A stretch of DNA of 64,000 nucleotides from Anaerolineae bacterium. GTDB lineage: Bacteria; Chloroflexota; Anaerolineae; Anaerolineales; UBA4823. The translations under genes were made by a program, and so were the position numbers. Below are positions 31,105 to 45,361 of the stretch, one piece after another (the first letter of the stretch is position 1; each line of letters opens with the position of its first letter). Below the pieces are notes generated by a model. That model saw nothing but the letters and a program-made list of their open reading frames with translations. It did not search any database and was not told the origin of the DNA. The stretch lies in assembly GCA_037439525.1 (NCBI GenBank), contig JBBIVW010000003.1, positions 124,393 to 188,392 on the forward strand. Direction: 5' to 3'.

Positions 31105-31106
31105 GT

Positions 31107-34100
31107 TCACCCCTGCACCTTGAGCTGCAAGCAGCGCCATACCTTTTCAGGCGTGAGGGGGTTGGCATCTATATCCGCGCCACAGGCATCATACACTGCA
31201 TTAGCCACCGCAGGCGCGACGCCATCCATGGGTATTTCGGCGACTGCTTTGACACCAAAAGGATGCGAAGGTTCCTGAGTTTCGATAAAAATCGTCTCCA
31301 AAGCAGGCATTTCGTGCGCTTGAAAGATGTGGTAATCGCGCAGATCGTGCTCGCGCGCCCTGCCGAATTCGTCGTAGCGCATCTCTTCGCATACAGCGTA
31401 GCCCAAAGCTTGGGTCATTCCGCCTTCGATTTGCCCGGAGGCGGTCAAGGGGTTGACAATGACGCCCGAATCGACCGCCATCACCAGTCTATCAACTACA
31501 ACCTGACCGGTTTCGATATCCACGGTGACTTCAGCGAATTGGGCGGCAAATGGTGGAGGGGAGACCGGCGACATGAACGAAGCCACAGCCATAATCTGTT
31601 CCTGGTCGGTATGATGCAGAGAATGCAATGCCACTTCCGCCAAGGTGACGGCGCGGCCGTCGGGTGCTATGGCTTGGCGCTCTGCAAGCACAAGGTCCTC
31701 TGCTTCCACCACAGGCAGTCCTTCTTCTGAGCGCGCGTTGAGAATGCGCGCCGCGCGCTGGCGGATCTTCTCCGCCACCTGCTGCGCAGCTTTGACAACC
31801 GCCCCCCCAGAGATGTAGGTGGTGCTGGAGGCATAGGCACCTTTATCAAACGGAGTGAAATCCGTGTCTGAGGAATATACTATGACATCCTCCAACGGCA
31901 CGCCCAACACCTCGGCGGCCATTTGAGCCAGGACCGTATCCGAACCGGTGCCTAGATCGGTCGCACCCACCAACAAGTTGAAAGAGCCATCATCATTGAG
32001 CTTGATGCTCGCCGCACCCATGTCCAGATAGGGGATGGCAGTGCCCTGCATCACCAGGGCAACCCCAATGCCGCGGCGTAAAAAGGGTTTGCCCGGTATG
32101 TGATGCCAGGCCGAGTTGTTAAACTTTCCATCCCAGCCGATCAGCGCCTTCCCTTGACGTACACATTCTTCTAATCCGCAGGTGAGGATGGTCTCGGGGC
32201 GCGGTTCGCGCCCCTCGCTCCAGGCAGTGCTGAAGGGGTGCAGCTCCCCGGCGCGCAGGGCATTTTTCAAGCGGAACTCCAGAGGGTCCAGATTCAGCGC
32301 GCGGGCGATTTTTTCCATGTGGCGCTCCACCGCCCAAAAGCCTTGGGGCACACCGTAACCGCGGTACGCCCCTGCCGGAGGGTGATTGGTGTACACCACA
32401 TCGGCATAAAAGCGGATGTTCGGCGATTGACGGTATTTGCCATCGCCGACATAAAGCGCCATGGATTTGTGTCCCGTGTTGCCGGTGACGGTAAGCGCAT
32501 GACAGCCATAGGCGCCGGTATCGGTGAGCACATGCATGGCATTGGCGGTGAGGGTACCGTCCTTTTTTACCCCGGTCTTCATGCGGATGCGCATAGGATG
32601 GCGCGAACGTCCGGCGATGAACTCCTCCTCGCGGGTGTACTCATAATACACGGGCCGACCGGTTGCAATGGTCAGGTGTGCAGCCACATCTTCAATGAGC
32701 ACCTCCTGCTTACCACCAAAGCCCCCGCCGATGCGCGGTTTGATCACGCGAATGCGCTTCATCGGCAAGCCCAATACCGGCGCCAGAATGCGCCGCGCAT
32801 GAAAGGGCACTTGGGTGCTGGTGCGAATCACCAGCCGATCGTCTTCGTCCCAGTAGGTGATGACTACATGCGGCTCAATGTGCGCCTGGTTGACCTTGGG
32901 GACTTCGTACTCAGCCTCAAAAATGTGGTCCGCTTCTGCAAAACCCTGCTCCACATCCCCAATGTCGATGCGGATCTCTGCAGCCAGGTTGCGGTGCGGG
33001 TCAGACTCGGCGAAATTGACGTACTCTGGCTCATCGTGCAAAATGGGGGCACCCGGCTGCATTGCCTGACGAGAATCCAACAAGGCAGGTAGAATTTCGT
33101 ATTCGACTTCGATAAGTTCCAATGCCTTTTCGGCGATTTCGGCGGTTTCAGCGGCCACAAAAGCCACCCGGTCGCCGACAAAGCGTACCTTGTTATCCAG
33201 GGAAAAGGTATCCAGGGGACCCGGGATGGGGTCGGACTGCCCGGCGGTGGAAAATGCCACGCGGGGGATATCCTCCCAGGTGAGCACTGCAGCCACTCCA
33301 GGCAAGGCGCGCGCTTTACTGGCGTCAATGCGTTTAATTCCCGCATGGGCATAAGGGCTGCGCAACACACGCGCAATCAACAAATCGCGTTTCTCGAAGT
33401 CGGCAGCGAAAGCCGGATTGCCCTGCACCAGTTTATAGGCATCCACCTTCACCTCGGGCGACCCGACGCGTTGCAAGCGCGGCATCTGTTCCGCAAGATG
33501 GATACGAGGCATAATCCGCGTGCGTAACAAGGCAGGGGAGATTGGTCCACCAGGCAAGTCTTCCGCCTCACCTCCCAAGTCATCCTTTGGCAACCACTCT
33601 GACGGCGCGGGGATCAACTCCTGTTCCCACTCTTCATCATCTACGGGCGGCACATCTTCGCCGCGCAGGCGCGCCGCGGCGCGTAATACCGCCTGCACCG
33701 GCTTGAGATATCCCGTGCAACGGCATAGCACGCCAGAAAGGGCTTCGCGCACCTGCTCCTCGTTGGGGTCAGGGTTTTGCTCAAGCAACTGACGGGCTGC
33801 CAGCACCTGCGCGGGAGTGCAATAGCCACATTGAATGGCTCCAGTTTCCACAAAAGCATGTTGAATCGGGTGCAATCCAGAGCTGGGCTTCCAGCCACGT
33901 TCGGGATGCTCGCCAAGCGCCTCGATGGCTTCAATTGAATGCCCTTCAGCCTGAGCAGCAAGGATCAAGCAGGCATTCACCGCTTTACCATCGAGTAAAA
34001 TCGTACATGCGCCACATTCTCCGGTCTCACATCCATGTTTGACACCGAAAAACCCCAATTTGCGCAGCACGCCAAGTAGCGTGTCCTTTGGAGAAGCGAC

Positions 34101-34142
34101 GAGTGAGTGCTTTTTATGGTTGATTTCCAAAGTAATTCTCAT
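31107..34142 (-). CDS. molybdenum hydroxylase large subunit fused to an N-terminal [2Fe-2S] module (XdhD/aldehyde-oxidase-like)
   Basis: GCETGECGACTILLDG, QCGYCTPAQ and LCRCTGY are followed by about 800 aa of molybdopterin-binding domain (GGGFGGK and GQIEGG blocks). Confidence 0.9.
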   Translation of the reverse strand: MRITLEINHKKHSLVASPKDTLLGVLRKLGFFGVKHGCETGECGACTILLDGKAVNACLILAAQAEGHSIEAIEALGEHPERGWKPSSGLHPIQHAFVETGAIQCGYCTPAQVLAARQLLEQNPDPNEEQVREALSGVLCRCTGYLKPVQAVLRAAARLRGEDVPPVDDEEWEQELIPAPSEWLPKDDLGGEAEDLPGGPISPALLRTRIMPRIHLAEQMPRLQRVGSPEVKVDAYKLVQGNPAFAADFEKRDLLIARVLRSPYAHAGIKRIDASKARALPGVAAVLTWEDIPRVAFSTAGQSDPIPGPLDTFSLDNKVRFVGDRVAFVAAETAEIAEKALELIEVEYEILPALLDSRQAMQPGAPILHDEPEYVNFAESDPHRNLAAEIRIDIGDVEQGFAEADHIFEAEYEVPKVNQAHIEPHVVITYWDEDDRLVIRTSTQVPFHARRILAPVLGLPMKRIRVIKPRIGGGFGGKQEVLIEDVAAHLTIATGRPVYYEYTREEEFIAGRSRHPMRIRMKTGVKKDGTLTANAMHVLTDTGAYGCHALTVTGNTGHKSMALYVGDGKYRQSPNIRFYADVVYTNHPPAGAYRGYGVPQGFWAVERHMEKIARALNLDPLEFRLKNALRAGELHPFSTAWSEGREPRPETILTCGLEECVRQGKALIGWDGKFNNSAWHHIPGKPFLRRGIGVALVMQGTAIPYLDMGAASIKLNDDGSFNLLVGATDLGTGSDTVLAQMAAEVLGVPLEDVIVYSSDTDFTPFDKGAYASSTTYISGGAVVKAAQQVAEKIRQRAARILNARSEEGLPVVEAEDLVLAERQAIAPDGRAVTLAEVALHSLHHTDQEQIMAVASFMSPVSPPPFAAQFAEVTVDIETGQVVVDRLVMAVDSGVIVNPLTASGQIEGGMTQALGYAVCEEMRYDEFGRAREHDLRDYHIFQAHEMPALETIFIETQEPSHPFGVKAVAEIPMDGVAPAVANAVYDACGADIDANPLTPEKVWRCLQLKVQG

Positions 34143-34370
34143 ATTGTTTCCAATCTCGACATCTGATCATGAAAAATGACAAACCCTTTGAGCAAACCTC
34201 CAGGGGTCAACAGGCATAAAAAACATTGAAAAGCCTCAAAGCATATTTTACCCTCTTTCTCACCTAAACAGCCTGCCGCAAGCGTTAGAGCCATGGGTAT
34301 AAGCCAGCAAAAGTCGGTTTCAGAGCCCCTTTTTTGGACGAGATTGCGTCCAGAAATTTGATATTAAACC

Positions 34371-34399
34371 TTGACAAAATTTAGACATCATGTTATATT
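34371..34399 (+). promoter_or_regulatory. sigma70-type promoter of the heliorhodopsin operon
   Basis: TTGACA (34371-34376), a 17-nt spacer, then TATATT (34394-34399) with TGT immediately upstream. A GGAG RBS precedes the ATG at 34460. Confidence 0.5.
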
Positions 34400-34459
34400 C
34401 TTACATCATCAGTACCAAATCTGAGGATACCTAAGCCTCGTAATCAATAGGAGAATAAG

Positions 34460-35254
34460 ATGAACACTCAAAAGCCAAGCCTCGGCGAAATCGACAGATA
34501 CGCCTCCCTGCGTCGCTTCAACCTCATCATGGGGTTTTTACATTTGATCCAAGGGGCGTTTATGTGGGTGGTCAGCAACGACACCACCTATCCAATTTTC
34601 ACCAACTTCCTTAAGTTTGACACAGCAACATTCTCGCTCAAGCCGGATTCTGAATTGTTTTATAAACTGCCATTAGGCCCAGCCGTGGCGATCTTCCTGC
34701 TTCTTTCTGCAGTGGCACATTTTTACCTCTCCACCATTGGCTACCAACGGTATGTTGCGGATTTAAAAAGCGGGAAAAATCCAATTCGATTTTATGAATA
34801 TGCCCTCAGTTCATCTTTGATGATCGTGTTGATCGGCATGCTCGCAGGTGTCTGGGACCTGGGCGCCATCCTCCTCATGTTCGCCTTGAACGCGACGATG
34901 AACCTGTTTGGGTTGCTCATGGAAAGCATCAATCAATACACCGAAAAAACCGACTGGACTCCATTTACGTTCGGCTCCATCGCGGGCATCATTCCCTGGG
35001 TGGTGATCTTCATCTACTTCTTTGGCGCAGTTGCCTCTGGCGGCGAGGCCAAGCCGCCTGCATTCGTGTATGCCATCATCCCGACACTTTTCGTCTTCTT
35101 CAACACCTTTGCGGTGAATATGTATCTGCAGTACAAAAAGGTTGGGAAATGGCGAGACTATCTTTACGGTGAACGAGGCTTCATTGTACTCAGCCTGGTA
35201 TCAAAATCCGTGCTCGCTTGGATGATTTTCGCGGGTACGCTTGCGCCAGTTTAG
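34460..35254 (+). CDS. heliorhodopsin (inverted-topology type-1-like retinal protein)
   Basis: 264 aa with 7 TM helices. By recall it aligns along its whole length to heliorhodopsin 48C12: FLHLIQ (His28), AVAHFYL (His87), RFYEYALSSS (counterion Glu113, GAA 34796-34798), LSLVSKSVLAW (Schiff-base Lys249, AAA 35204-35206), and the C-terminal IFAGTLAPV. Confidence 0.9.
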   Translation: MNTQKPSLGEIDRYASLRRFNLIMGFLHLIQGAFMWVVSNDTTYPIFTNFLKFDTATFSLKPDSELFYKLPLGPAVAIFLLLSAVAHFYLSTIGYQRYVADLKSGKNPIRFYEYALSSSLMIVLIGMLAGVWDLGAILLMFALNATMNLFGLLMESINQYTEKTDWTPFTFGSIAGIIPWVVIFIYFFGAVASGGEAKPPAFVYAIIPTLFVFFNTFAVNMYLQYKKVGKWRDYLYGERGFIVLSLVSKSVLAWMIFAGTLAPV

Positions 35255-35262
35255 AATAAACC

Positions 35263-36105
35263 ATGAGCATATCCATACTCACTGACAGCACCTGCGACCT
35301 TCCTGAAGAGGTCATCCAAAAGTACCAGATTGAGGTCGTCCCATTGTTCATTCAAATGGGAGAAAAACAACTGGTTGACGGGATGAATATCACCAAAGAA
35401 GAATTCTACGCCCGTCTGCCGGATTATGATCCGGCGCCCACTACAGCATCGCCAGGCCCGGATATCTTCAAAGAAGCCTACCGGCGCCTGGCTGCCCAGG
35501 GTGCAGAAACCATTCTCTCGCTACATATCTCCGAAGCCCTAAGCGCGACGATCAAGAGCGCTCGTATGGCTGCGCAGGAGATGGACCGCGTTGCCGTGCA
35601 AGTAATCGATTCGGGCCAACTCAGTCTAGGGCTGGGTTTTATGGTTGAAAGAGTTGCTCAGATGGCGCATCGTGGGGCAAGCCTGGAGGAGATCCAGCAC
35701 GAGATCAAAGAGATGCAATCCAGGACATATGTCTTCGCCGCGTTGGATACATTGGAATACCTGCGTCGCAGCGGGCGGATGCACATTGCCCTGGCGCGCT
35801 TTGGGGAGATTCTGCAATTGAAAGCCCTCCTGTACATGCACCAAGGGCGCCCCGAAGCTCATCGCATTCGCACAACCAAAAAAGCAATGCACAAGATGTT
35901 CTCCTGGCTGGAGCACCGCGCGCCGTTCGAAAAGCTGGCAGTCCTGCACGCAGGTGTATACGATAGAGCAAAAGCCTTGCGAGAACAGGTGCAAAAATAC
36001 CTCCCTAGGGAAGAGATCCCAATTACCCAGATCACCCCGGTTTTAGGGGCGCATCTGGGTGTGGGGGCTTTGGGTTTTGCCTGTATGTCACAAACGAAAA
36101 GGTGA
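35263..36105 (+). CDS. DegV family fatty-acid-binding protein
   Basis: MSISILTDSTCDLPEEVIQKYQIEVVPL... is the characteristic DegV N-terminus. The length is 280 aa. Confidence 0.9.
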   Translation: MSISILTDSTCDLPEEVIQKYQIEVVPLFIQMGEKQLVDGMNITKEEFYARLPDYDPAPTTASPGPDIFKEAYRRLAAQGAETILSLHISEALSATIKSARMAAQEMDRVAVQVIDSGQLSLGLGFMVERVAQMAHRGASLEEIQHEIKEMQSRTYVFAALDTLEYLRRSGRMHIALARFGEILQLKALLYMHQGRPEAHRIRTTKKAMHKMFSWLEHRAPFEKLAVLHAGVYDRAKALREQVQKYLPREEIPITQITPVLGAHLGVGALGFACMSQTKR

Positions 36106-36902
36106 ACGAAATGAATTTCATGACACTATGGCTTGAAGCGGGATTAATCATCCTGGGGTTGATGACTACACTCTGGTTGCTCAGCCTGGTGCTGAGAGAT
36201 TCGAGTATCGTAGACATCTTCTGGGGCACGGGTTTTGTGGTCACTTTTTGGGCTGCGGCCGCCCTGCTGCCAGATGGGCTCTCCCCGCGCAGCGTCCTAT
36301 TGGGCATATTGGTTACCATTTGGGGAGTGCGCCTGTCTGCATATATCGGCTACCGCAACATCGGGCACGGGGAGGACTTCCGCTACGCCCAATGGCGGCA
36401 GGAAGCCGGCTCTTCCTGGTGGTGGCGTAGCTTTTTCAAAGTCTTTTTGCTCCAAGGGGTGATCATGTGGCTGGTGGCAGCTCCCCTTCTGGCAGTGCAA
36501 ACCTCCAAAGCAAACGCTTCCATCGGTTGGATGGATCTGCTCGCCGTACTGGTATGGCTAATCGGTTTCATCTTCGAAGCTGGCGGTGACCTGCAACTGG
36601 CTCTTTTCAAACGCAATCCTGAAAACAAGGGGAAACTGTTAACCAGCGGGCTCTGGGGGCTAACCCGCCACCCGAACTATTTTGGAGACGCGTTGCAATG
36701 GTGGGGATTTTACCTATTCGCCCTGATCAGCGCAGGATGGTGGACGGTGTTCAGCCCGCTGATCATGACTTACCTGCTGCGAAACGTATCCGGCGTTGCC
36801 ATGCTGGAGAAATCGCTCAAAGACGCCAAGCCGGGCTACGAAGAATATGTCAGGCGCGTGCCGGCGTTTGTTCCGCGCATACTCCCGAAAAAAGGTGAAT
36901 AA
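36102..36902 (+). CDS. DUF1295 membrane protein (steroid 5-alpha-reductase/ICMT-like superfamily)
   Basis: Polytopic protein with the C-terminal block GLWGLTRHPNYFGDALQWWGFY. It overlaps degV by 4 nt. Confidence 0.8.
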   Translation: MNEMNFMTLWLEAGLIILGLMTTLWLLSLVLRDSSIVDIFWGTGFVVTFWAAAALLPDGLSPRSVLLGILVTIWGVRLSAYIGYRNIGHGEDFRYAQWRQEAGSSWWWRSFFKVFLLQGVIMWLVAAPLLAVQTSKANASIGWMDLLAVLVWLIGFIFEAGGDLQLALFKRNPENKGKLLTSGLWGLTRHPNYFGDALQWWGFYLFALISAGWWTVFSPLIMTYLLRNVSGVAMLEKSLKDAKPGYEEYVRRVPAFVPRILPKKGE

Positions 36903-36903
36903 C

Positions 36904-37248
36904 ATGAGTATATTGAAAATCCTTCAAATTGTCGGTGTCATCGGCACCGTGCTTACTGGCTTGATCGCCTTGTTCTTTCCGCGCAATATCCAAGGCTTTA
37001 CCGGGTTAACCGCACCTGGTGCGCGCGGCATCACAGAATTTCGCTCTGTCTTTGGCGGTGCCTTCATCGGATTGGGAATTGCCATTTTGGTTCTGGGAAC
37101 ACGAGAAGCCTACCAAACACTCGGCTTGATGTATCTGGCTATTGGAGTCATTCGGGCGATCTCCATGGTCGTGGATAAATCCTTCGAACAATCCAACTGG
37201 ATCAGCCTGGCAGCAGAAATCGTCTTCGGTGTAATCCTGGTGCTGTGA
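36904..37248 (+). CDS. small four-TM membrane protein (DUF4345-like by recall)
   Basis: 114 aa from the ATG at 36904, 1 nt after the upstream stop. It contains EFRSVFGGAFIGLG. Confidence 0.55.
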   Translation: MSILKILQIVGVIGTVLTGLIALFFPRNIQGFTGLTAPGARGITEFRSVFGGAFIGLGIAILVLGTREAYQTLGLMYLAIGVIRAISMVVDKSFEQSNWISLAAEIVFGVILVL

Positions 37249-37586
37249 TGCGAACCGCCAAAATTATCGCTCTACTAGGGCTGGCCGCGATGAGCGCAGC
37301 GTTAATATTCGGCTTTACCGTAGGAGATTTTATCTCCGAGGGAGGTCAACTGGTTTCCATGCCGTGGGGGATTGTCTCCCTGGTGGATTTGTACACAGGC
37401 TTTGTGCTTTTCTCGGTGTGGATCATTTTCCGGGAAAAATCTCTTCCTGTGGCTATCCTGTGGACCATCGGAATGCTGGTATTAGGGTTTTGGGCGGGAA
37501 GCCTCTACTTTTTGCAAGCCCTATACTTCAGCAAAGGCGACTGGCGCAAGTTCTGGTTGGGCAAACACGCCTCACGCGGGGATTAA
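37245..37586 (+). CDS. small membrane protein (DUF1475-like by recall)
   Basis: 113 aa with a 4-nt start/stop overlap. It contains PWGIVSLVDLYTGF. Confidence 0.55.
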   Translation: MMRTAKIIALLGLAAMSAALIFGFTVGDFISEGGQLVSMPWGIVSLVDLYTGFVLFSVWIIFREKSLPVAILWTIGMLVLGFWAGSLYFLQALYFSKGDWRKFWLGKHASRGD

Positions 37587-37613
37587 CTCCCGAAGTGTTT
37601 CTGGGCAATTATT

Positions 37614-38282
37614 ATGAACAAAGCACACGAGCTGTGGGCCGAATTAAAATCAGTGCTCGGCAACCGACTGTTGGATGTAATTCTGCCGCCGCTATTTTTC
37701 TTGCTTATCAATGGATTATGGGGGCTGGCCACCGCAATGGTCACTTCGCTCTTTGTTGCCGCGGCAATTTCCTATGTTCGCCTGCGGCGCGGGGAAAGCC
37801 TGCGATATGCACTGGCTGGTGTGGTCAGCCTCCTGACGGCCCTGGCGCTTACCTGGATATTAGGGCGCGCAGAAGGTTATTTCATCCCCGGATTGGTGAA
37901 CGCCGCCCTTACTTTCGGGATCTGTGCTCTCAGCTTGTTCATCAAACGCCCTCTGACTGCCTGGAGCAGTTATTTAGTACGCCGCTGGCCTTTGGAGTGG
38001 TATTGGCACCCTCGCGTGCGCCCAGCCTACACCCAGACAACGCTGCTCTGGACAGCCTTTTTCGGCGTGCGGTTTCTATGGCAATACAATCTTTTCCGCG
38101 ATAACCAGGTAGAAACATTAGCTTGGGTAAATGCCCTCTTGGGGTGGCCAGCCCTGATCATCCTGTTAGTCATCACGTACCTGGTCGGGATATGGATGCT
38201 CCGACGTTTAAAAGGGCCGAGTGTAGAGGAATTTCGAGCAGGTACCCCACCCCCCTGGCACAGCCAGCGAAGAGGGTTTTAG
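37614..38282 (+). CDS. polytopic membrane protein, hypothetical (DUF3159-like by recall)
   Basis: 222 aa with about 6 TM helices. I preferred it over the overlapping Arg/Cys-rich ORF at 37364-38104. Confidence 0.55.
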   Translation: MNKAHELWAELKSVLGNRLLDVILPPLFFLLINGLWGLATAMVTSLFVAAAISYVRLRRGESLRYALAGVVSLLTALALTWILGRAEGYFIPGLVNAALTFGICALSLFIKRPLTAWSSYLVRRWPLEWYWHPRVRPAYTQTTLLWTAFFGVRFLWQYNLFRDNQVETLAWVNALLGWPALIILLVITYLVGIWMLRRLKGPSVEEFRAGTPPPWHSQRRGF

Positions 38283-38310
38283 CAATTCTAAAATTATAAA
38301 GGAAAGAACG

Positions 38311-39315
38311 ATGATTCGAGAACAATGGTATGTCGTTTTAGAATCCAACCAGGTTGGGAACAAACCGATTAGTGCGCTGCGCCTGGGTGAAAAGATGGTC
38401 TTCTGGAGGGACGGTCAGGGGGTTGTGCGATGTGCTGTAGATCGCTGCCCGCATCGCGGTGCAGCCCTGAGCAAAGGGAGCATAACCAATAACCACCTGC
38501 AATGCCCTTTTCATGGATTTGAGTTCAACGCTCAGGGAATGTGTGTGCATATCCCGGCAAATGGACGAGGGGGCAATATCCCTAAGTCAATGCGCTTGCA
38601 AAGTTACCCTACATACGAAGAACATGGCTTTATCTGGATTTGGTGGGGAGATTCCGCACCTAAAGATAAACCCGAATTCTTCGATAACATTGGCAACGAG
38701 TTCCAATATACTTCCGTGCAAGACGCCTGGAATACACATTATTCGCGCGTGATAGAGAATCAGCTGGATGTGGCCCATTTACCCTTCATACACAAGAAAA
38801 CCATCGGTCGCGGTGGCCGCACGGTGGTGGATGGCCCGTTGGTTGAATGGCATGGGGAAAAATTGCTGTACACTTATGTGTTCAATCGCAAAGACGACGG
38901 AACACCTGCGCGCAAGCCTTCGGAGTTATCTGCTGCACAATCCAGCAGCGTGCATTTGGAATTCATCATGCCCAACCTGTGGCAAAACTATATCAGCGAA
39001 AATGTGCGCATTCTCATCGCCTTTGTGCCAGTGGATAACGATAACACCCTGCTGTACCTGCGCTTCTACCAAAAAACCATTCCCATTCCACTTGTGGGCA
39101 AGATTTTCACCCTTCTGGCAATGCCGATGAACATCTTCATCGCCCATGAGGATAGATACATTGTGGAGACACAAGAGCCAAAAGCAAGCGGGTTGAAAAT
39201 CGGTGAAATTTTAATCCAGGGGGACCTTCCCATCATCGAATATCGGCGAAGGCGCGCCGAGTTGCAAGCCAAATCAAATTCCTATCAAAAAGAAAGCAAG
39301 AGTAATGAAAAATAA
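38311..39315 (+). CDS. Rieske [2Fe-2S] / mononuclear non-haem iron oxygenase (PaO/KshA-like alpha subunit)
   Basis: The Rieske motif is CPHRG...CPFHGF. The catalytic iron motif is ENQLDVAHLPFIH (DxxHxxxxH). Confidence 0.85.
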   Translation: MIREQWYVVLESNQVGNKPISALRLGEKMVFWRDGQGVVRCAVDRCPHRGAALSKGSITNNHLQCPFHGFEFNAQGMCVHIPANGRGGNIPKSMRLQSYPTYEEHGFIWIWWGDSAPKDKPEFFDNIGNEFQYTSVQDAWNTHYSRVIENQLDVAHLPFIHKKTIGRGGRTVVDGPLVEWHGEKLLYTYVFNRKDDGTPARKPSELSAAQSSSVHLEFIMPNLWQNYISENVRILIAFVPVDNDNTLLYLRFYQKTIPIPLVGKIFTLLAMPMNIFIAHEDRYIVETQEPKASGLKIGEILIQGDLPIIEYRRRRAELQAKSNSYQKESKSNEK

Positions 39316-40573
39316 GTCCCTAACCGCGATCATCCTGGTCGTTTTCATCGACCTGCTAGGTTTCAGCCTAATCCTGCCCCTTCTGCCTTATTATGCAGAT
39401 ACCTATGGCGCCGGAGGCGCCGTCACCGGTTTGCTGGTAGCCTCTTATGCAATCATGCAGCTGATTGGCGCACCCATACTTGGGCGCTTATCGGATAGAC
39501 ACGGACGAAGGCCCTTATTACTGATCTCGGTCGCAGGCACCTCACTGGGCTTTCTACTTCTGGCTCTGGCGGACCCAATTGGAAATTTCCTGGCACAAAG
39601 CTTCAATTCGAATGCTGCGAATATATTTATCATCGCTTTGCTCTTCCTGAGTCGCATGTTGGATGGATTGACCGGCGGGAATATCAGCGTGGCTCAGGCT
39701 TACATTACGGATGTTACCGTAGAAAAGGAGCGCGCCAGAGGCTTGGGGCTAATTGGTGCCGCATTTGGATTAGGTTTTATCATCGGTCCTGCAGCCGGAG
39801 GCCTGCTCAGCCAATGGGGATACGCCGTCCCCGCATTTGTCGCCACAGCTCTGACCATATGCAACCTTGCGCTGATATATTTCTGGTTGCCAGAATCGCT
39901 CTCGCAACAGAGGCGAGATGAACTGCGCACCACCCCGAACACGCCGTTGACGCTAAACGCTCTGATTCGGGCACTACAAAGACCGTATAGCGGAGCATTG
40001 TTGACCACGCGTTTTTTCTTCAACCTGGCATTTTCGATCTTGCAAACCATTTTTTCGCTCTATGCTCTAGAGCGGTTCAGCTTATCTGCACAAAGTACGG
40101 GGTTTTTACTTACCTATATCGGTCTGTTATCTGTGTTTGTGCAGGGTTTTTTAGTAGGTAAACTGAATGCACGCTATCGTGATGATCTACTCATCCCGGC
40201 GGCTGTGAGCATCATGACCATCGCCATGCTCGGATGGGCCTGGGCTCCCAATATCCCCTGGCTGTTGCTCGTGCTCGCTCCGATGGCAATATCCGGAGGG
40301 CTTTTAAATACCTTGTTATCTTCCTCCCTGACCAAAGCTGTACAAAGAAATGAAGTGGGGGGTATTTTAGGGTTAGGAGCTTCGTTGGATAGCGCAACAC
40401 GCATCATCGCGCCCATTATGGGCGGGATGCTCATCCAACAGTATGGCACATCAGCTCCTGGTATCGCAGGGGCGATGATCCTGGCTGGGCTGTCGATGTA
40501 CGTATGGCGGATTATTTATGCCCACCCGATAGCTGTTGAAATAGACACTAGTCAAAGGAAGATACAGGCATGA
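39305..40573 (+). CDS. MFS transporter (12 TM, drug:H+ antiporter-like)
   Basis: GRLSDRHGRRP motif A between TM2 and TM3, with 12 hydrophobic segments. Confidence 0.85.
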   Translation: MKNKSLTAIILVVFIDLLGFSLILPLLPYYADTYGAGGAVTGLLVASYAIMQLIGAPILGRLSDRHGRRPLLLISVAGTSLGFLLLALADPIGNFLAQSFNSNAANIFIIALLFLSRMLDGLTGGNISVAQAYITDVTVEKERARGLGLIGAAFGLGFIIGPAAGGLLSQWGYAVPAFVATALTICNLALIYFWLPESLSQQRRDELRTTPNTPLTLNALIRALQRPYSGALLTTRFFFNLAFSILQTIFSLYALERFSLSAQSTGFLLTYIGLLSVFVQGFLVGKLNARYRDDLLIPAAVSIMTIAMLGWAWAPNIPWLLLVLAPMAISGGLLNTLLSSSLTKAVQRNEVGGILGLGASLDSATRIIAPIMGGMLIQQYGTSAPGIAGAMILAGLSMYVWRIIYAHPIAVEIDTSQRKIQA

Positions 40574-41280
40574 TTCATTACTTGAGACAAGAATTAACCG
40601 TCCCCGTTGACTTGGAGGCCATCTGGCCTTATTTCGCAACACCCCGAAACCTGAATGAATTGACACCCAGCACGATGCGCTTTGAGTTCGTTGCCGGTGG
40701 GGAGGAGCCAATGTATGCCGGGCAGATCATCGAATACAAGGTAGAGATTCTGCCCGGAATTAGGGTACGTTGGCTGACAGAAATTACTCATATGGAACAA
40801 TATAAATACTTCATCGACGAGCAGCGTATTGGTCCTTATCGCCTGTGGATCCACGAGCACCGTTTTGAAGGCGTGGAAAACGGGACGCGCATCCTAGACC
40901 GAGTTACTTATGGGCTTCCGTTTGGTTTTTGGGGTGATCTTGTGCATAAGCTCTTTGTGCGCCAACGGCTTAAATGGATTTTCGACTATCGCGCCGAGCA
41001 AATAAAAGGCTGTTTGGTTAGATTTGCGTGGTGCCATAGACCCTTTTTCTTCGCACCGTTAGCAATCACTCGCCGTGACCGTGCTGTGTTGCGGGCTATA
41101 TATGGACCGACCTTTAATATTCAGGCAGGAAGGATGAACCTGCCTTTCTCACCAAAGGATCGCATGTGGGGGAATTTCGGGTTAGCTCAGCACACGAGCG
41201 CCAACATGATATACGAAACGGAACGAATGGACTTGAGTTTCCAGGAAACGGTACGGCGCCCTAGCCGGCCAAGGTCATAA
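40570..41280 (+). CDS. SRPBCC (START/cyclase-dehydrase-like) protein with an unexplained ~85-aa C-terminal extension
   Basis: The first ~150 aa form a complete small SRPBCC domain (...RLWIHEHRFE...IFDYRAEQI). The tail has an atypical composition and runs into an inverted repeat. Confidence 0.65.
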   Translation: MIHYLRQELTVPVDLEAIWPYFATPRNLNELTPSTMRFEFVAGGEEPMYAGQIIEYKVEILPGIRVRWLTEITHMEQYKYFIDEQRIGPYRLWIHEHRFEGVENGTRILDRVTYGLPFGFWGDLVHKLFVRQRLKWIFDYRAEQIKGCLVRFAWCHRPFFFAPLAITRRDRAVLRAIYGPTFNIQAGRMNLPFSPKDRMWGNFGLAQHTSANMIYETERMDLSFQETVRRPSRPRS

Positions 41281-41298
41281 CCCGTTTCCTGGAAACTC
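41235..41298. repeat. perfect 17-bp inverted repeat with a 30-nt spacer, spanning the SRPBCC stop codon
   Basis: GAGTTTCCAGGAAACGG (41235-41251) pairs with CCGTTTCCTGGAAACTC (41282-41298). Confidence 0.8.
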
Positions 41299-41594
41299 GC
41301 AAACTGCGCCAGTCGATCCAAGAAACGAATGCAAACGTTCCGAATCAGCGTTGTAAACCCACCCAGATTCCAACCATCCGTTGGGTTTTTCAGCTTTTTA
41401 AATGCTTGGACATCCTGTTGGCGAAGCGAAACAGTGAAGTGACACTTATCAGCTCCTGAACCTACAGGTAGCTCAAGAAGAGATCATCAAGCTACTTGGC
41501 CCTCAGGCGATAAAATGCAATTGGTTCGGTTCTTAAGGCACGGAATGCGGGATGAACAAGAGGCTACAGCCAGCTTCAGCCGCAAACGATACCC

Positions 41595-44588
41595 CTAGGG
41601 ATTGACCCAGCTAAACACCTGACCGTTAAACCTGGGTAACGGAACTAGCTCACACGTTTGAGGGTTGATTAGGGCAGGGATTTGGCGTGGAAGGAATATA
41701 TAGGGAGGGTGCACCGTCACCAGAATCCAGTCACCCTCACCCGACCATAGGGGATTGCTCAGAAACAGCTCCCCGAGCTGCAGGATCAATTGACGTTGGG
41801 AATGATCCATCAGTGAAACAAACAATCCTGCCGCAAGCTCTCCGGGGACCCTTTCCAAGTAGGCTACCCTGGTGCCATCAGGAGAGATGGCAGCTTCACC
41901 ACCACGAGTGCTATCAAAAGAGAACAGACTGTGTTCGATTCCGGTGAGCAGGTCTTTGAACATCAGAGTCACCCTTTTATCTGCAGGGAGGGTGAAATAA
42001 ATTCCTGTTCCATCAGGCTCCCATCCGACCAGCCCCTCGTACTCGCCATGGGAGGTCACCTGCTGTAAGCTATCGGTATATAGATGGAGTATGTAGATGT
42101 CTGCTTGGGCAGAGCGGATGAACGCCAGAGAGCCGCCGTCTGGTGACCAGAGCGGAGCATAGTCTCCCGGCTGGGTAGCGGCGAGGAAACGATCGATGCC
42201 AGAGGTCAGATCAAAGAGATGCAAACCATCGTCCGTGCTGTAAGCCACGCTTGAAACCTGTGGCGAGAGGGCATACCACGCACCTGGAGGGAGCGCCTGT
42301 CGGTGGCTACCGTCCAAATCCGCGATAAAGGCACCAAAATCTTCAAGTGTGGAGGAGTAATCTCGCTCACCCAAATGTCCGTAGACGATAACTTTGCCTC
42401 CCACGCCTGCAGGCAAAGCTGGTGGCTGAGCCAGCGTTGCCAGCCAAGCCGCAGATGAAGCACATGCTTGAAGCTGTGACGGAGGCGGCGCGTTCGGGTC
42501 AGCATCGGGTGGTGCCCAGGTCGCCTGCCAGGCACCTTTGAGGGAAATCTGGTGCACCGCAAAGGTGAATAAACCGGTTAGCTCGCCATCTGTTAGGACA
42601 TACGAGCGCAGGACTCCCTCGGCATCGCGCCCCGAACCGCCACCACCACGTCCCTGACCTCCAATAACGCCGCTATCGAGGGTCACATGTATCGCCTGAA
42701 TGGCCGGAGGCGCCTCCCAGGTGAGTTCAAACCCTTGCAAGTCACCCTGGCGTACAAAGCGTAAGGAACGTACTTGCACAATGTATGCGGGCAACTCGAT
42801 AGGAAGTAAACCGATCTTCCAAGAATTTCCTAATTGCTGTGGGGCAGCATTGAAACCCATGGAGGCCAGGTCGATCGTGAAGGAAACCGGCTGGGCAAAG
42901 GTGATCTCGACCTGGTTCATCTTCAAAGTCAACGGTGCGCGTAAAGGGCGACCATATACTCGCCCGACCCATTGCGCCGGGGTAGTTTCGCTCAGCCCTA
43001 GCTCGTCCGCGTGGGCGGGCTCGAATGGCACATTTTCTCCCTGAGCATCCTGCAGCTGCATATTCCAGGCGCTTGAGGCTACCTCGGAAAGGCGTGTATC
43101 TTCCCATTTCAAAGCGCCAGCCAGATAATAGCCATCCTCCAGTGGGATAGACCTCTCCAAAGCGAGTTCGATACCAAATGGAGACAGCTCCTCTGCATCG
43201 GTTGTCGCATCCTCTGGCGACCAGGTCACTGTATAGACTGGCCCAGGGGAGCGTAGGATCAGCTCGGTGACCGCCAGGGTAATCTCTCCAACAGGTGGGG
43301 TTCCCTGATACTCCAGGCTGGCATGAACCATCCCTTGCCCATCCCCGCCCCCACCACCGCCCATAGGTTGTGTACCGGGGATTTCGATAGCGATACTCTC
43401 CACCTGCGGTTGTGTAGTAAATGTAAAGTCATAACCGTGGCCGGTGAAAGTTGCCGAGTCCAGTCGTACTGGAATTCCATCGATGATCACCTGATCATCC
43501 AACTCCCATTCCTGCCCTTTCTGCGGGTTGGGACCGGTATCGAATGTAAACGTTGCCTGGCTGGGGACGGAGTCTAAGCGATCGGATTGCACCGTAAAAC
43601 GAAGCGGCCAGGCAATATCCCCTGCGGACAGGCGATATGCCCAAACCATATCCACTTCTTCAGGCACATCACTAAAGTCGATGTCGTTGGCAAAAACTGC
43701 AAACTGCGCTTGTCCGCGAGCATCCGTGATCTCCACTGTGGACATAAACGCGGTGAGCATACCGCCATCTAGAAGATGCACATTGGTGAAGGTAAGCAGG
43801 AAGATATATCCATCGGAATACTCTACGACACGGTGCAGTTGAAACGGAGCGGGCGATGGAATAGCCTCTGGTTGGGCGCTCGCTTCGACCGAAGGTATAG
43901 CAGTGGAATCCAACTGCGGGGGCGTGGGGGTGGGCACATCGATCACCTCTGCTATAGCAATATCGGGCGGCGCAGCGACGAAGCGCAGGGTCAATTCCCA
44001 ATTTTCGGGAGCCTTGCCAGGCAGGGTACCTAAGAGGCACGGCATAACGAACGTGATTTCATCGATATCGGGGGAAATCGGGGCATACACAAAGCGGCTG
44101 GCATGCGGCGAGCCGCCACCGCTAATCAGCTGCATGCTCTCTCCGCTCGGCAGGCGCAGGAATGCCTGTCCGCTGCAGCCAGGGATATTTTCTTCAGGAG
44201 ACAAAGCCTCCCATGGCACGCCTTCCACCGAGAAGAGCACGACGCTTTTGTCGGAGCTAAGCACCGCCTGATGAACCGTCAGGGTTATCCCCTGACGGGT
44301 GAGACTCACCGGTTGTTCCAGGATGCGCAATGTGGCATCCTGTTGGATCACACCTACGCCAGGGATATATCCCAAAACATTGCCCAGAGCATAAGCGACA
44401 CCCGCCAGAGCGGCTAAAATCAACAATGCCAACAATACCGCTGCGACAGGGTGGTAGCGCCAGATACGCCGCAATGGCGCCTGCTTTTCTCGACTCACCT
44501 GTTCGACAAGGCGAGGGAACAGATCGAAATTGTCTGGGATGTGCGCGCGGGCAATTTCATCGAGGATTTCAGCAGATGATGGCTTCAT
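41595..44588 (-). CDS. membrane-anchored anti-sigma factor-like protein with duplicated middle domains and a C-terminal TolB/PD40-like propeller
   Basis: The ATG at 44588 overlaps the sigma-factor stop (ATGA). There is a short cytoplasmic N-terminus and one TM. Two similar domains each carry a Gly-rich loop (MGGGGGGDGQG; GRGGGGSGRD). The C-terminus has SPDGxxxAF/Y repeats. Confidence 0.75.
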   Translation of the reverse strand: MKPSSAEILDEIARAHIPDNFDLFPRLVEQVSREKQAPLRRIWRYHPVAAVLLALLILAALAGVAYALGNVLGYIPGVGVIQQDATLRILEQPVSLTRQGITLTVHQAVLSSDKSVVLFSVEGVPWEALSPEENIPGCSGQAFLRLPSGESMQLISGGGSPHASRFVYAPISPDIDEITFVMPCLLGTLPGKAPENWELTLRFVAAPPDIAIAEVIDVPTPTPPQLDSTAIPSVEASAQPEAIPSPAPFQLHRVVEYSDGYIFLLTFTNVHLLDGGMLTAFMSTVEITDARGQAQFAVFANDIDFSDVPEEVDMVWAYRLSAGDIAWPLRFTVQSDRLDSVPSQATFTFDTGPNPQKGQEWELDDQVIIDGIPVRLDSATFTGHGYDFTFTTQPQVESIAIEIPGTQPMGGGGGGDGQGMVHASLEYQGTPPVGEITLAVTELILRSPGPVYTVTWSPEDATTDAEELSPFGIELALERSIPLEDGYYLAGALKWEDTRLSEVASSAWNMQLQDAQGENVPFEPAHADELGLSETTPAQWVGRVYGRPLRAPLTLKMNQVEITFAQPVSFTIDLASMGFNAAPQQLGNSWKIGLLPIELPAYIVQVRSLRFVRQGDLQGFELTWEAPPAIQAIHVTLDSGVIGGQGRGGGGSGRDAEGVLRSYVLTDGELTGLFTFAVHQISLKGAWQATWAPPDADPNAPPPSQLQACASSAAWLATLAQPPALPAGVGGKVIVYGHLGERDYSSTLEDFGAFIADLDGSHRQALPPGAWYALSPQVSSVAYSTDDGLHLFDLTSGIDRFLAATQPGDYAPLWSPDGGSLAFIRSAQADIYILHLYTDSLQQVTSHGEYEGLVGWEPDGTGIYFTLPADKRVTLMFKDLLTGIEHSLFSFDSTRGGEAAISPDGTRVAYLERVPGELAAGLFVSLMDHSQRQLILQLGELFLSNPLWSGEGDWILVTVHPPYIFLPRQIPALINPQTCELVPLPRFNGQVFSWVNP

Positions 44589-45136
44589 TCTGCACTCCTT
44601 TCTACGCCCAGCAAAGCGCGCAAGCGTTTTCGGGCACCATGTAACAGCCACTTAATCGTCCCGCGAGAGAGCTGAAGCGAAGCCGCCATCTCCTTCTCGC
44701 TCATTTCCAGGTAATAACGTTGCACAACCACTGCTCTCTGGCGCGGGGAGAGCCGGCCAAGCGCAGCGAAAATCGCCTGTTTCAATTCGGCGAGTTCCAC
44801 CTGAGATTCGACAGAGGTCGCTTGGTGTATCAAGCCTTCCACTTCTCTGAGGTCCACATCCAGATGCATCTCCTTCTTCTGGCGACGCAGAACATTCAGG
44901 GAAGCATTCACCACGCTGCGCATCAGGTAGGCTTCGAATGGCCGACTTTCATCGAGGCGCTGTGAGGCGTGGAAGAGGCGCAGGAAGGTATCCTGCACGA
45001 CATCCTCTGCCAGCCCCTCATCCTGAGTGATCAGGAACGCCAGGCGCGCAGCCTTGAGCTGGTAACGCCTGACCAGGTGCTCCAACCCGTCAATTTCGCC
45101 ACGCTTCATTTGGCGAATAGCTTGGTCATCATCCAT
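44585..45136 (-). CDS. ECF-type RNA polymerase sigma-70 factor
   Basis: Region 2 (EDVVQDTFLRLF) and region 4 (RQRAVVVQRYYLEMSEKEMAASLQLSRGTIKWLLHGARKRL). GGAG lies 6 nt upstream of the ATG at 45136. Confidence 0.9.
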   Translation of the reverse strand: MDDDQAIRQMKRGEIDGLEHLVRRYQLKAARLAFLITQDEGLAEDVVQDTFLRLFHASQRLDESRPFEAYLMRSVVNASLNVLRRQKKEMHLDVDLREVEGLIHQATSVESQVELAELKQAIFAALGRLSPRQRAVVVQRYYLEMSEKEMAASLQLSRGTIKWLLHGARKRLRALLGVERSAE

Positions 45137-45361
45137 GCATTTCTCCAAGTCAGAATTTCATGTGTTATACACCAAACGAGCAAAAAAGGTTGGGGGAGGA
45201 GCAGACTGGCTTTTTATCCTTAGGTCCATTCAAGGGCTGGTGTTACTGCCTTGGAGTTGAGAAGTTCGGCGTCTCTACCAGATGAGGGTGGAGCAATGGG
45301 AAATTTAATCTCTTCAGCACAGGATATGAATAACCTGGCTGCAAAGCTTCGCGGAATGACG

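Follow-up and report, generated by a model that had tools for sequence, protein, structure and literature searches.

A heliorhodopsin-containing nine-gene operon with a candidate CarH operator in an Anaerolineae bacterium

Organization of the operon and its gene products

The window analyzed here, a 64-kb stretch of DNA from an Anaerolineae bacterium, contains nine co-directional ORFs on the plus strand (34460–41280). Their junctions measure +8, -4, +1, -4, +27, +28, -11, and -4 nt; the four overlaps suggest translational coupling, and the other junctions do not exceed 28 nt. The sole strong promoter match between positions 33900 and 41800 is a sigma-70-type promoter on the plus strand (TTGACA-17-TATATT with an extended -10 TG, 34371–34399), which agrees with the consensus at 11 of 12 positions. 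Eight further matches in this region score 9/12, with 7.9 expected by chance. A GGAG ribosome-binding site lies upstream of the first ATG. No convincing terminator was found on searching the operon interior, and a terminator-like hairpin followed by a T-run is located on the plus strand 89 nt past the last stop codon (41369–41385 or, at its widest, 41369–41393). Based on the tight or overlapping junctions, the single strong promoter, and the single terminal terminator-like site, the nine ORFs are a real operon forming one transcription unit. The ORFs, junctions, and promoter reported in the first-pass annotation, which had been made from the sequence without database searches, were confirmed, the junctions exactly.

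Gene products were assigned using Pfam profiles with their cut-offs, NCBIfam models, and matches to PDB structures. All nine families named in that annotation were recovered with Pfam, seven of them above the cut-offs. The first gene (34460–35254) encodes a heliorhodopsin (HeR) of 264 aa (PF18761, 340 bits), which also exceeds the cut-off of the NCBIfam HeR equivalog (364 vs. 100 bits). Its best solved structure is TaHeR (6IS6, 2.5e-73), and H28, H87, the counterion E113, and the Schiff-base K249 are all aligned. The second gene (35263–36105) codes for a DegV-family fatty-acid-binding protein of 280 aa (Pfam DegV, 258 bits; TIGR00762, 269 bits, above cut-off), whose full-length PDB matches are 2DT8 (1e-43) and FakB1/FakB2.

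The third product (36102–36902, 266 aa) is a DUF1295 membrane protein (247 bits) of the steroid-5-alpha-reductase/ICMT-like superfamily with secondary Pfam matches to Steroid_dh, ERG4/ERG24, and PEMT. It is followed by genes for a DUF4345 protein (36904–37248, 114 aa, 36.9 bits, cut-off 26.5), a DUF1475-like protein (37245–37586, 113 aa), and a DUF3159 protein (37614–38282, 222 aa, 109 bits) with a weak NCBIfam match to the VC0807 family. Hydropathy analysis, which showed 4, 3, and about 5–6 hydrophobic segments, respectively, confirmed that all three belong in the membrane. The DUF1475-like protein scored below the Pfam cut-off (19.9 vs. 22.3 bits); most of its 2406 homologs carry a precomputed PF07343 match. 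The DUF4345 gene was taken to start with the ATG at 36904, while the mechanical ORF list begins at a TTG upstream (36796); for the DUF1475-like gene, a second possible ATG start is present at 37248.

The seventh gene (38311–39315) encodes the alpha subunit of a Rieske non-heme-iron oxygenase of the VanA/DdmC type (334 aa; Pfam Rieske and VanA_C). Its best PDB match is DdmC (3GB4, 1e-30), followed by SxtT and NdmA, and the match to KshA_C is weak. The sequence contains the iron motif D153-x2-H156-x4-H161 as well as C46, H48, C65, and H68 as cluster ligands; a reductase gene for the oxygenase was not found among the nine genes. An oxygenase in a supposed anaerobe had seemed odd. This objection does not hold, as Ca. 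Villigracilis, the nearest named relatives, are facultative anaerobes using O2 (PMC10746286) and the Rieske ortholog is abundant in Anaerolineales (4172 homologs at E<1e-20). The eighth gene (39305–40573) encodes a DHA1/Tet-like efflux transporter of the MFS type (422 aa; MFS_1, 191 bits), whose best NCBIfam matches, all far under the cut-offs, are to the Tet(A/B/C) family. The ninth (40570–41280) codes for an SRPBCC-like protein with a domain at about residues 1–148 (Polyketide_cyc2, 19.3 bits, cut-off 27.4). It shares 53–54% identity with proteins of 151–152 aa from two related loci (L005 and L006); homologs stop at about 150 aa, and the last 85 residues (about 41016–41280) have no counterpart.

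A candidate CarH operator at the promoter

The operator of the adenosylcobalamin-dependent photoreceptor CarH has the consensus of a tandem nnnnTnnACAn across the -35 region (PMC9304148). Four in-register 11-bp units forming a candidate operator of this type lie on the plus strand at 34356–34399, namely dr ATTTGATATTA starting at 34356, DR AACCTTGACAA starting at 34367 and containing the -35 region, DR AATTTAGACAT starting at 34378, and dr CATGTTATATT starting at 34389 and containing the -10 region. The 20-nt pattern of two DRs occurred once in the window, with 0.07 occurrences expected. With a matrix trained on 16 sites from other loci, the window being left out, the site at 34367 (plus strand) ranked first among 127,936 window positions, but its 19.6 bits lie below all 16 training sites (20.5–41.9 bits). 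Just two of these units are canonical, and one of this pair takes its TnnACA from the -35 TTGACA itself.

In related loci, two to four in-register repeats were present 5' of carH or HeR; in L170, there are four perfect DRs together with a TATAAT. The promoters of L022 and L028 and the carH-divergent promoter of L088 contain a unit identical to AACCTTGACAA. Among intergenic upstream regions, CarH-type repeats occurred at 9 of 64 HeR genes, 4 of 7 carH genes, and 5 of 701 other genes (p about 1e-7), and the enrichment was replicated in independent metagenome contigs (HeR 8/65, other genes 2/378; p = 5e-6). As judged from the DNA sequence, the operon promoter thus appears to bear the signature of the B12-dependent light-sensing repressor CarH. 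Because tblastn revealed no carH gene in the 64-kb window, we assume that the regulator is encoded elsewhere in the genome.

Related loci and linkage to carH

The first-pass annotation had made its reading depend on conservation of the neighborhood in related HeR loci, and such conservation was found. Conservation of the gene set, though with the order shuffled, is limited to the closest relatives within Anaerolineales (HeR identity of 78% or more; L001, L003, L004, L005, L006, L007, L081–L085, L089, L090, and L170); the set is missing from about 70 other HeR loci. DegV lies directly 3' of HeR in the window and in all of these loci except L004, which has the cluster without DegV. DUF4345 is kept, and the DUF1475-like gene is located directly 5' of DUF3159 wherever a cluster has both. 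The conserved part of the layout is its gene content; a second instance of the exact nine-gene order was not found among the loci examined. The distal end and the chromosomal flanks differ between relatives, whose clusters often also carry genes for photolyase, pyrimidine-dimer glycosylase, AhpC/TSA peroxiredoxin, SDR, and alpha/beta hydrolases. That the nine genes were juxtaposed by chance or read-through and share no function, as the unique gene order and the variable distal end might suggest, can practically be dismissed, since the related loci in which the same families recur, shuffled and between different flanks, number more than 12, and four junctions overlap.

In nearly all conserved-cluster loci, a gene for a MerR and B12-binding protein heads the same-strand run containing HeR; in most it is immediately 5' of HeR, and in L005 two genes lie between. 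The best solved relatives of this protein are CarH (5C8D) and LitR (3WHP) of Thermus thermophilus (3e-31), its best NCBIfam match is CarH, and it has both the Wx9EH motif and the His that serves as lower ligand. Orthologs of the Rieske, MFS, and DUF1295 genes were also found in carH clusters lacking HeR (L086, L088, and L171), and some occur with neither. The MFS orthologs in carH clusters with and without HeR are 56–64% identical to the window protein. The DUF1295 protein shares 54% identity with that of L087, which adjoins a Rieske ortholog, and just 33–35% with the longer DUF1295 proteins of the relatives' HeR clusters. Among HeR clusters, a minority contain the Rieske gene, namely those of L005, L081, L170, and the window. 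The occurrences without HeR indicate that the three genes follow CarH rather than HeR and do not depend on the latter, which makes the earlier description of the operon as heliorhodopsin-led doubtful.

Proposed function and comparison with known systems

Most likely, the operon is one more light-induced photoprotection cluster. We assign a probability of roughly 0.6 to the reading in which relief of CarH repression turns on an operon for photo-oxidative protection, HeR-DegV being one of its sub-modules. In the dark, a CarH/LitR-type AdoCbl tetramer would sit on the tandem repeats over the -35 and -10 regions, and in the light its release would allow all nine genes to be expressed together. In this reading, the operon is a mosaic of two sub-modules recurring in Anaerolineales light-response clusters: HeR, DegV, DUF4345, the DUF1475-like protein, and DUF3159 form the first; DUF1295, the Rieske oxygenase, the Tet-like exporter, and the SRPBCC protein form the second, which travels with carH even without HeR. 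The likely task is protection or repair of the cytoplasmic membrane under light and O2, with products that may handle or modify fatty acyl compounds or hydrophobic molecules of other kinds and may oxidize and export photosensitizers or their damaged products. HeR probably adds a second level of light control by acting post-translationally on a co-encoded protein. As DUF1295, DUF4345, DUF1475, DUF3159, and this Rieske subfamily have no established function, the photoprotective chemistry is assigned through guilt by association. Of the functions proposed in the first-pass annotation, which included light-gated remodeling of lipids, isoprenoids, or pigments, the comparative data favor the photo-oxidative-damage module, so that its interpretation was supported in part.

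It is less probable, yet to be taken seriously, that HeR itself controls the pathway, binding DegV or passing a fatty acid to it in the light, and that all nine genes serve one HeR-dependent lipid-remodeling pathway. DegV is the commonest immediate neighbor of HeR, also as divergent neighbor (L009, L011, L015, and L027), and the strongest HeR-specific neighbor in the literature, and HeR crystal structures bind a fatty acid (bioRxiv 10.1101/2021.02.16.431466); moreover, HeRs modulate co-encoded proteins (PMC9529153, PMC11109279). On the other hand, DegV lies within 10 kb of HeR in just 9 of 80 genome HeR loci, the L004 cluster lacks it, and the Rieske, MFS, and DUF1295 orthologs occur without HeR. 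In addition, FakA was found neither in the window, whose only candidate is a short Dak2/DhaL-like gene (49700–50341), nor in any cluster examined. Control by HeR can be reconciled with the CarH-dependent reading where HeR and DegV are concerned, but it does not explain the whole set of nine genes.

The Rieske and MFS proteins could alternatively constitute a VanA/DdmC-type O-demethylase and a Tet-like efflux pump for aromatic or xenobiotic compounds, placed behind HeR by coincidence. The closest solved relatives, dicamba O-demethylase and methylxanthine demethylases, and the tetracycline pumps as best MFS matches point in this direction, but all these matches are far under the family cut-offs and neither a reductase or ferredoxin partner nor catabolic genes accompany them. 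Furthermore, carH is adjacent in 6 of 10 sampled ortholog contexts, of which several also contain photolyase or AhpC; in the window, there are in addition the candidate operator and junctions that overlap or span at most 28 nt. We therefore regard this explanation as very unlikely.

Equally hard to credit is a supply role in which, the usual blh being absent, the Rieske, DUF1295, and SRPBCC proteins make, trim, or deliver retinal or a precursor as the carotenoid-derived chromophore of HeR. In favor of it, blh is rare in HeR genomes, for which an unknown retinal route was proposed (bioRxiv 10.1101/2021.02.16.431466), and CarH classically controls carotenogenesis (PMC9304148). CrtD/CrtI-family FAD desaturases adjoin the Rieske gene in L086, L088, and L169, but the CrtI-like matches are far under the equivalog cut-offs, the operon has no carotenoid gene, and the Rieske gene is confined to a minority of HeR clusters and also occurs where HeR is absent. 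SRPBCC domains bind hydrophobic ligands, which would suit such a delivery; we know of no Rieske enzyme that cleaves carotenoids to retinal.

The closest known arrangement is the HeR-DegV-DUF2177-DUF1295 neighborhood of Chazan et al. 2021 (bioRxiv 10.1101/2021.02.16.431466; later Environ Microbiol), for which light-dependent lipid remodeling or repair of oxidative membrane damage was hypothesized. It shares with the window HeR followed by DegV, DUF1295 in the same unit, and a Chloroflexota host, and both the functional hypothesis and the wider neighbor families (AhpC/TSA, photolyase, PNPOx, MFS, and cobalamin-binding proteins) match as well. The core and the lipid-remodeling or oxidative-stress idea, including the lipid module of the first-pass annotation, were therefore already published, and the interpretation given there is mostly not new. 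The operon differs in that DUF2177, for which no signal was obtained even at E<=10, is replaced by DUF4345, the DUF1475-like protein, and DUF3159, in the additional Rieske and SRPBCC proteins, and in its DUF1295, a different paralog from that of the relatives' HeR clusters.

With the CarH/LitR regulons of T. thermophilus, Bacillus megaterium, and Myxococcales (PMC9304148), the locus shares the tandem 11-bp repeats overlapping both elements of a sigma-70 promoter. The relatives add a regulator gene with the Wx9EH/His signature at the operon head, which implies autoregulation, and photolyase and CrtI-family genes among the cargo. In contrast to these regulons, the cargo here consists of heliorhodopsin-centered membrane genes instead of carotenoid synthesis genes, the regulator gene is unlinked in the window, and the operator is a predicted one. 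Against light induction, HeR of an actinobacterium not known to have the operator was up in the dark, not in the light, in the single RNA-seq study that was found (PMC8591293).

Singlet-oxygen regulons, such as the Chlamydomonas SAK1 regulon with DUF1295, DUF2177, and a Rieske protein (PMC4067076) and sigmaE-ChrR of Rhodobacter sphaeroides (cited in PMC4067076), resemble the operon in DUF1295, a Rieske 2Fe-2S protein, transporters, and lipid-modifying enzymes, a resemblance of family names only; their DUF2177 and SOUL are also published HeR neighbors. The regulator differs, and the operon has no cyclopropane or furan fatty-acid synthase gene. The link to singlet-oxygen stress suggested in the first-pass annotation was thus borne out for DUF1295, whereas no singlet-oxygen literature was found for DUF1475. 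The FakA/FakB fatty acid kinase is matched by the full-length alignment of the DegV protein to FakB structures, but this protein fails the FakB1 equivalog cut-off (156 against 350) and FakA is missing from the window and from the clusters examined.

A partnership of HeR with photolyase reportedly has experimental support. Contrary to the earlier statement that the partners of HeR are unknown, glutamine synthetase (PMC9529153) and the ABC transporter OmrDE (PMC11109279) were also reported. None of the three is encoded in the operon here, and DegV and the small membrane proteins are not among the experimentally supported partners. In those systems, HeR shares its transcript with the modulated partner, as would be the case here, which supports the idea of a direct HeR target among the operon products.

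Organization of the heliorhodopsin operon and its products

The first-pass annotation had described nine plus-strand ORFs within 34371-41280 with junctions of +8, -4, +1, -4, +27, +28, -11, and -4 nt, and both positions and junctions proved to be exact. The genes (34460-41280) form a real operon and encode, in this order, heliorhodopsin (HeR), DegV, a DUF1295 protein, three small membrane proteins (DUF4345, DUF1475-like, and DUF3159), a Rieske oxygenase, an MFS transporter, and an SRPBCC-like protein. The start codon of the fourth gene (DUF4345) is ATG 36904, a mechanical ORF list opening the frame at an upstream TTG, and the fifth gene (DUF1475-like) has possible starts at GTG 37245 or ATG 37248. 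The proposed promoter (TTGACA-17-TATATT, 34371-34399) was confirmed with 11 of 12 positions matched and an extended -10 TG, and no other strong promoter match was found in the region 33900-41800, where the remaining eight matches are at the chance level of 9/12. A GGAG ribosome-binding site is located upstream of the first ATG, and a hairpin with a T-run was found behind the last operon gene at 41369-41385. Hydropathy identifies six of the nine gene products as integral membrane proteins. In the 5' leader, neither a riboswitch nor any other RNA family was detected by Rfam searches at gathering thresholds; the sole match in the window was a glmS ribozyme/riboswitch at 46802-47042 (+; RF00234, 43.9 bits versus a gathering threshold of 37), which is directly followed by the glmS gene (47076-48971, +) encoding GATase and SIS domains.

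The protein families named in the first-pass annotation were confirmed by Pfam, with the exception that DUF1475 and SRPBCC (Polyketide_cyc2) scored below the cut-offs. HeR matched PF18761 (340 bits, cut-off 26.7) and NF038020 (364 bits, cut-off 100). In an alignment with the solved structure of TaHeR (6IS6), all hallmark residues were present, namely the retinal Schiff-base lysine K249 in TM7, the counterion E113 in TM3, and the conserved histidines H28 and H87 in TM1 and TM2, whose TaHeR counterparts are K238, E108, H23, and H82, respectively. DegV contains a full-length EDD-fold domain (TIGR00762, 269 bits, cut-off 99.7), and its residues 1-275 align with T. thermophilus DegV (PDB 2DT8) and the FakB1/2 structures; the score against the FakB1 equivalog was 156 bits at a cut-off of 350. 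The usual partner of DegV/FakB is FakA, whose kinase domain family is Dak2. No FakA is encoded in the 64-kb window, the only Dak2/DhaL-like ORF (49700-50341, +; 31.7 bits) being located 8.4 kb downstream and, with 213 amino acids, too short for FakA. The DUF1295 gene (36102-36902) was assigned with 247 bits, and the link of its product to the steroid-5-alpha-reductase/ICMT-like superfamily rests on secondary Pfam matches, since a PDB sequence search gave only a marginal match to a Delta14-sterol reductase (E = 0.002). The DUF1475-like protein reached 19.9 bits versus a cut-off of 22.3, and its close homologues carry a precomputed DUF1475 match. The idea that the small membrane proteins are hidden relatives of DUF2177 was rejected, as no operon protein matched DUF2177 (PF09945) even at E ≤ 10.

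The Rieske protein is composed of a Rieske (82 bits) and a VanA_C domain (61 bits) with intact cluster ligands C46, H48, C65, and H68 (CxH...CxxH) and an intact mononuclear-iron motif (D153-x2-H156-x4-H161). It is of the VanA/DdmC/NdmA/SxtT type, not recognisable as the KshA or PaO type named before, and belongs to no characterised subfamily (best NCBIfam equivalog SdmA, 89 versus 600; KshA_C, 18.8 versus 23.3). The operon encodes no reductase or ferredoxin partner; in a related cluster (L088), a small Rieske ferredoxin-like gene was seen. The view that an oxygenase is an oddity in a presumed anaerobe was abandoned, because Ca. Villigracilis, another member of the Anaerolineales, uses O2 (PMC10746286). 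The MFS protein is a DHA1/Tet-like exporter. For the last product, the SRPBCC assignment is plausible as a remote match only (Polyketide_cyc2, 19.3 bits, cut-off 27.4). Its ORF has an 85-residue tail (41016-41280, +) beyond the stop codon of the homologues, which has no detectable homologue itself and might be due either to the loss of a stop codon or to an extension specific to this lineage.

Divergent from the HeR promoter lies a molybdenum hydroxylase cluster of the xanthine-dehydrogenase family (27472-34142, -), which codes for a 1011-amino-acid fused 2Fe-2S + MoCo subunit, an FAD/2Fe-2S subunit, XdhC, and a DHH-CBS-DHHA2 protein. On the other side, an ECF-type sigma factor gene (44585-45148, -) is followed by one for a 1018-amino-acid PD40 beta-propeller protein; together they span 41595-45148 (-) and probably form an anti-sigma/sensor pair. 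A role of this pair as a LitS- or ChrR-like regulator of light stress was weighed and set aside, as it is convergent with the operon and the related clusters lack a homologue. Also on the minus strand are the F420 biosynthesis genes CofC and CofD beside a luciferase-like monooxygenase (51312-54041) and, separately, a gene for a DUF6909 protein (25236-26966, 740 bits).

Conservation of the neighbourhood and mosaic structure

The comparison of HeR loci suggested in the first-pass annotation was performed with 80 loci taken from one-genome-per-species contigs, whose six-frame ORFs were searched with the nine proteins singly and then with profiles. The gene set was found to be kept, but only in the closest clade and in shuffled order. 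This clade consists of Anaerolineales, Ca. Villigracilis saccharophilus included, and its loci with the set (L001, L003, L004, L005, L006, and L007) encode HeR proteins with 78-84% identity and have chromosomal flanks unlike those of the window. In L005, the order is HeR-DegV-PyrExcise-SRPBCC-DUF4345-DUF1475-DUF3159-MFS-Rieske-hydrolase-DUF1295. Among the 80 loci, DegV was present in nine, DUF4345, DUF1475, and DUF3159 in six each, DUF1295 in five, SRPBCC in two, and Rieske in one. Homologues of the DUF1475-like protein and of the Rieske protein led to further relatives, as did a metagenome scan. Their gene order is carH-HeR-DegV-DUF4345-DUF1475-DUF3159-Rieske in L081 and L170, carH-HeR-DegV-DUF4345-DUF1475 in L082-85, and carH-HeR-DegV-DUF1475-DUF3159-DUF1295-DUF4345 in L089 and L090. 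Downstream of DUF4345, L089 continues with AhpC-unknown-SDR-MFS-unknown-photolyase, and the L090 contig stops. The exact nine-gene order occurred in no other locus examined. Exact-sequence look-ups of the HeR and DUF1475-like proteins of the window returned no contig on record, and an exact 24-nt promoter search among metagenome contigs gave no match; hence, the species is not represented in the collections, which left the nine-gene order without replication.

In almost all relatives, a gene for a protein with MerR, B12-binding_2, and B12-binding domains heads the same-strand run containing HeR, usually immediately upstream of HeR. The best solved relatives of its product are CarH of T. thermophilus (5C8D) and LitR (3WHP), AdoCbl (B12)-dependent photoreceptor-repressors (3e-31), its top NCBIfam match is CarH, and the Wx9EH motif and the lower-ligand His are conserved. 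The runs also hold genes for photolyase, pyrimidine-dimer glycosylase, AhpC/TSA, PNPOx-like, SDR, and alpha/beta hydrolase proteins and constitute a light/UV/oxidative-damage gene set. Within the 64-kb window, tblastn detected no carH, photolyase, AhpC, SDR, or Pyr_excise gene and none of the conserved unknowns of these clusters.

One of the regular members of the carH/HeR clusters is a conserved protein of ~310-346 amino acids without firm Pfam family (N_BRCA1_IG match, faint at some loci), which is encoded in L001 (13582-14595), L005 (3564-4562), L081 (5319-6263), L088 (7171-8211), and L170 (3210-4121) and is absent from the window. An unannotated family of ~250 amino acids with only a weak precomputed TspO_MBR match (L005, 13440-14195; L086, 14317-15084; L034; L105, L139, L148) recurs in carH clusters. 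It also directly adjoins HeR in the distant non-Chloroflexota loci L139 and L148 and is a possible further HeR-linked family. Tandem duplicated HeR genes were observed in a Methanomassiliicoccus-like archaeon (L073, 9034-10747) and in the metagenome contigs L149 (9047-10741) and L108.

With the window included, ten contexts were sampled for the Rieske gene, the orthologues being 65-72% identical. The orthologue was accompanied by HeR in the window, L005, L081, and L170, by carH without HeR in L086, L088, and L171, and by neither in L087, L169, and L172. The gene order is carH-MFS-hydrolase-Rieske-CrtD-like-photolyase-PNPOx-...-AhpC in L086; in L088, carH is divergent from unknown-DUF1295-SDR-Rieske-SnoaL-SDR-CrtI-like-PlsY-GT-MFS-hydrolase, and in L171 from epimerase-Rieske-...-photolyase-AhpC. 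Furthermore, the DUF1295 protein of the window shares 54% identity with the one encoded beside the Rieske gene of L087 and only 33-35% with the longer paralogue from the HeR clusters of relatives. The operon is therefore a mosaic of a HeR-DegV-small-membrane-protein core and a CarH-associated DUF1295/Rieske/MFS/SRPBCC part, and its distal genes track CarH, not HeR. A recurrent module DUF1295-(SDR)-Rieske-SnoaL-SDR-CrtI-family FAD oxidase (L088, 8208-14030; L169, 8119-12983), of which the window retains only DUF1295 and Rieske, resembles a pathway with a hydrophobic substrate.

Candidate CarH operator at the heliorhodopsin promoter

CarH operators consist of tandem 11-bp repeats of the type nnnnTnnACAn, with the -35 region placed inside one repeat, and degenerate repeats are tolerated (PMC9304148). 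In this register, the HeR promoter of the window reads ATTTGATATTA / AACCTTGACAA / AATTTAGACAT / CATGTTATATT (34356-34399). The units AACCTTGACAA and AATTTAGACAT are canonical and the two outer ones degenerate; the -35 region lies within the second unit, AACCTTGACAA, and the -10 region within the fourth, CATGTTATATT. The two-repeat pattern occurs once in the 64 kb versus 0.07 expected occurrences, one canonical repeat being partly "free" because TTGACA itself contains TnnACA.

The same repeat architecture, including a recurrent third unit nnnnTTGnnnn, was found just upstream of carH or HeR in the relatives. The unit AACCTTGACAA is identical at the promoters of L088, L022, and L028, and in L170 four perfect repeats precede a TATAAT. 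Within intergenic regions upstream of genes, the pattern of two repeats was present at 9/64 HeR genes and at four of seven carH genes versus 5/701 other genes (Fisher p = 1.7e-7 and 4e-7, respectively), and the result was 8/65 for HeR versus 2/378 (p = 5e-6) in 80 independent metagenome loci. At many pattern-positive HeR loci an adjacent carH is missing, as in the window. With a matrix derived from 16 non-window sites, 34367 (+) ranked first of 127,936 window positions, with a score near the lower limit of the training scores. The second-best match (51102-51134, -; 16.0 bits), situated ~93 nt upstream of a gene for an M23 peptidase (50401-51009) and with its ACA triplets spaced by 11 bp, is probably due to chance, as the T of TnnACA is missing in both repeats. 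A match at 22515 in a relaxed scan for three ACA triplets was dismissed, being inside a coding region. In summary, HeR promoters of Anaerolineae, including that of the window, bear candidate CarH-type operators; HeR expression is therefore predicted to be light-induced by the B12 photoreceptor, and the operon is predicted from its promoter sequence to be part of a CarH light regulon.

Proposed function and comparison with known systems

In the dark, AdoCbl-CarH encoded elsewhere would occupy 34356-34399 and block RNA polymerase. In the light, CarH would be released and the nine genes would be transcribed as one message. The products are mostly membrane proteins. HeR, DegV, and the three small membrane proteins form the HeR-linked core, whose members are candidates for a direct partnership with HeR. 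The remaining proteins are a reductase/methyltransferase-like membrane enzyme (DUF1295), a putative mono-oxygenase (Rieske), a Tet-like exporter (MFS), and a presumed ligand binder (SRPBCC-like); their plausible targets are hydrophobic photosensitisers or lipids that have been damaged, which they might modify, oxidise, carry, and export. We consider it unlikely, with a chance of perhaps one in seven, that HeR is induced by CarH together with DUF4345, DUF1475-like, and DUF3159 as its partners and that illuminated HeR gates the DegV-dependent handling of fatty acids for the repair of singlet-oxygen-damaged lipids. If true, the two photoreceptors would act in series, the HeR effectors missing so far would be found in this clade, and the HeR genes of Anaerolineae would generally belong to the CarH regulon. 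Few HeR partners are known so far, and direct ones can be sought among fewer candidates once a HeR-linked core is distinguished from a CarH-linked accessory set, a distinction that also cautions against taking every neighbour as a HeR effector.

Among the neighbours of HeR, DegV and DUF2177 have been described as the most specific, with DUF1295 often found as a third, and AhpC/TSA, photolyase, PNPOx, MFS, and "cobalamin-binding proteins" were reported in the vicinity of HeR; a light-dependent lipid remodelling or a repair of oxidative membrane damage was proposed and a common light regulation raised as a possibility (Chazan et al., bioRxiv 10.1101/2021.02.16.431466). HeR operon groups with MerR, photolyase, SDR, alpha/beta hydrolase, and DUF2177 have also been reported (Cho et al., PMC11109279). 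The first-pass annotation had linked DUF1295 and DUF1475 to singlet-oxygen stress, which is correct for DUF1295, a member of the Chlamydomonas SAK1 regulon, and not for DUF1475; this regulon also includes DUF2177 and a Rieske protein (PMC4067076). The locus opens no new category, since both the link of HeR with DegV and DUF1295 and the lipid/oxidative-stress hypothesis had been published before. No paper tying HeR to a CarH operator was found in the literature, where earlier work lists only "cobalamin-binding" or "MerR" neighbours. The operon may serve as a test bed for the predicted regulatory link between HeR and CarH and for HeR function; it is not a new kind of system.

The operon is a clade-specific variant of the published HeR neighbourhood. 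With the HeR-DegV-DUF2177-DUF1295 arrangement it shares DUF1295 and a same-strand DegV gene 8 nt after HeR, whereas DUF2177 is absent. With the CarH/LitR regulons it shares tandem 11-bp repeats overlapping the promoter, two canonical and two degenerate, to which CarH is predicted to bind.
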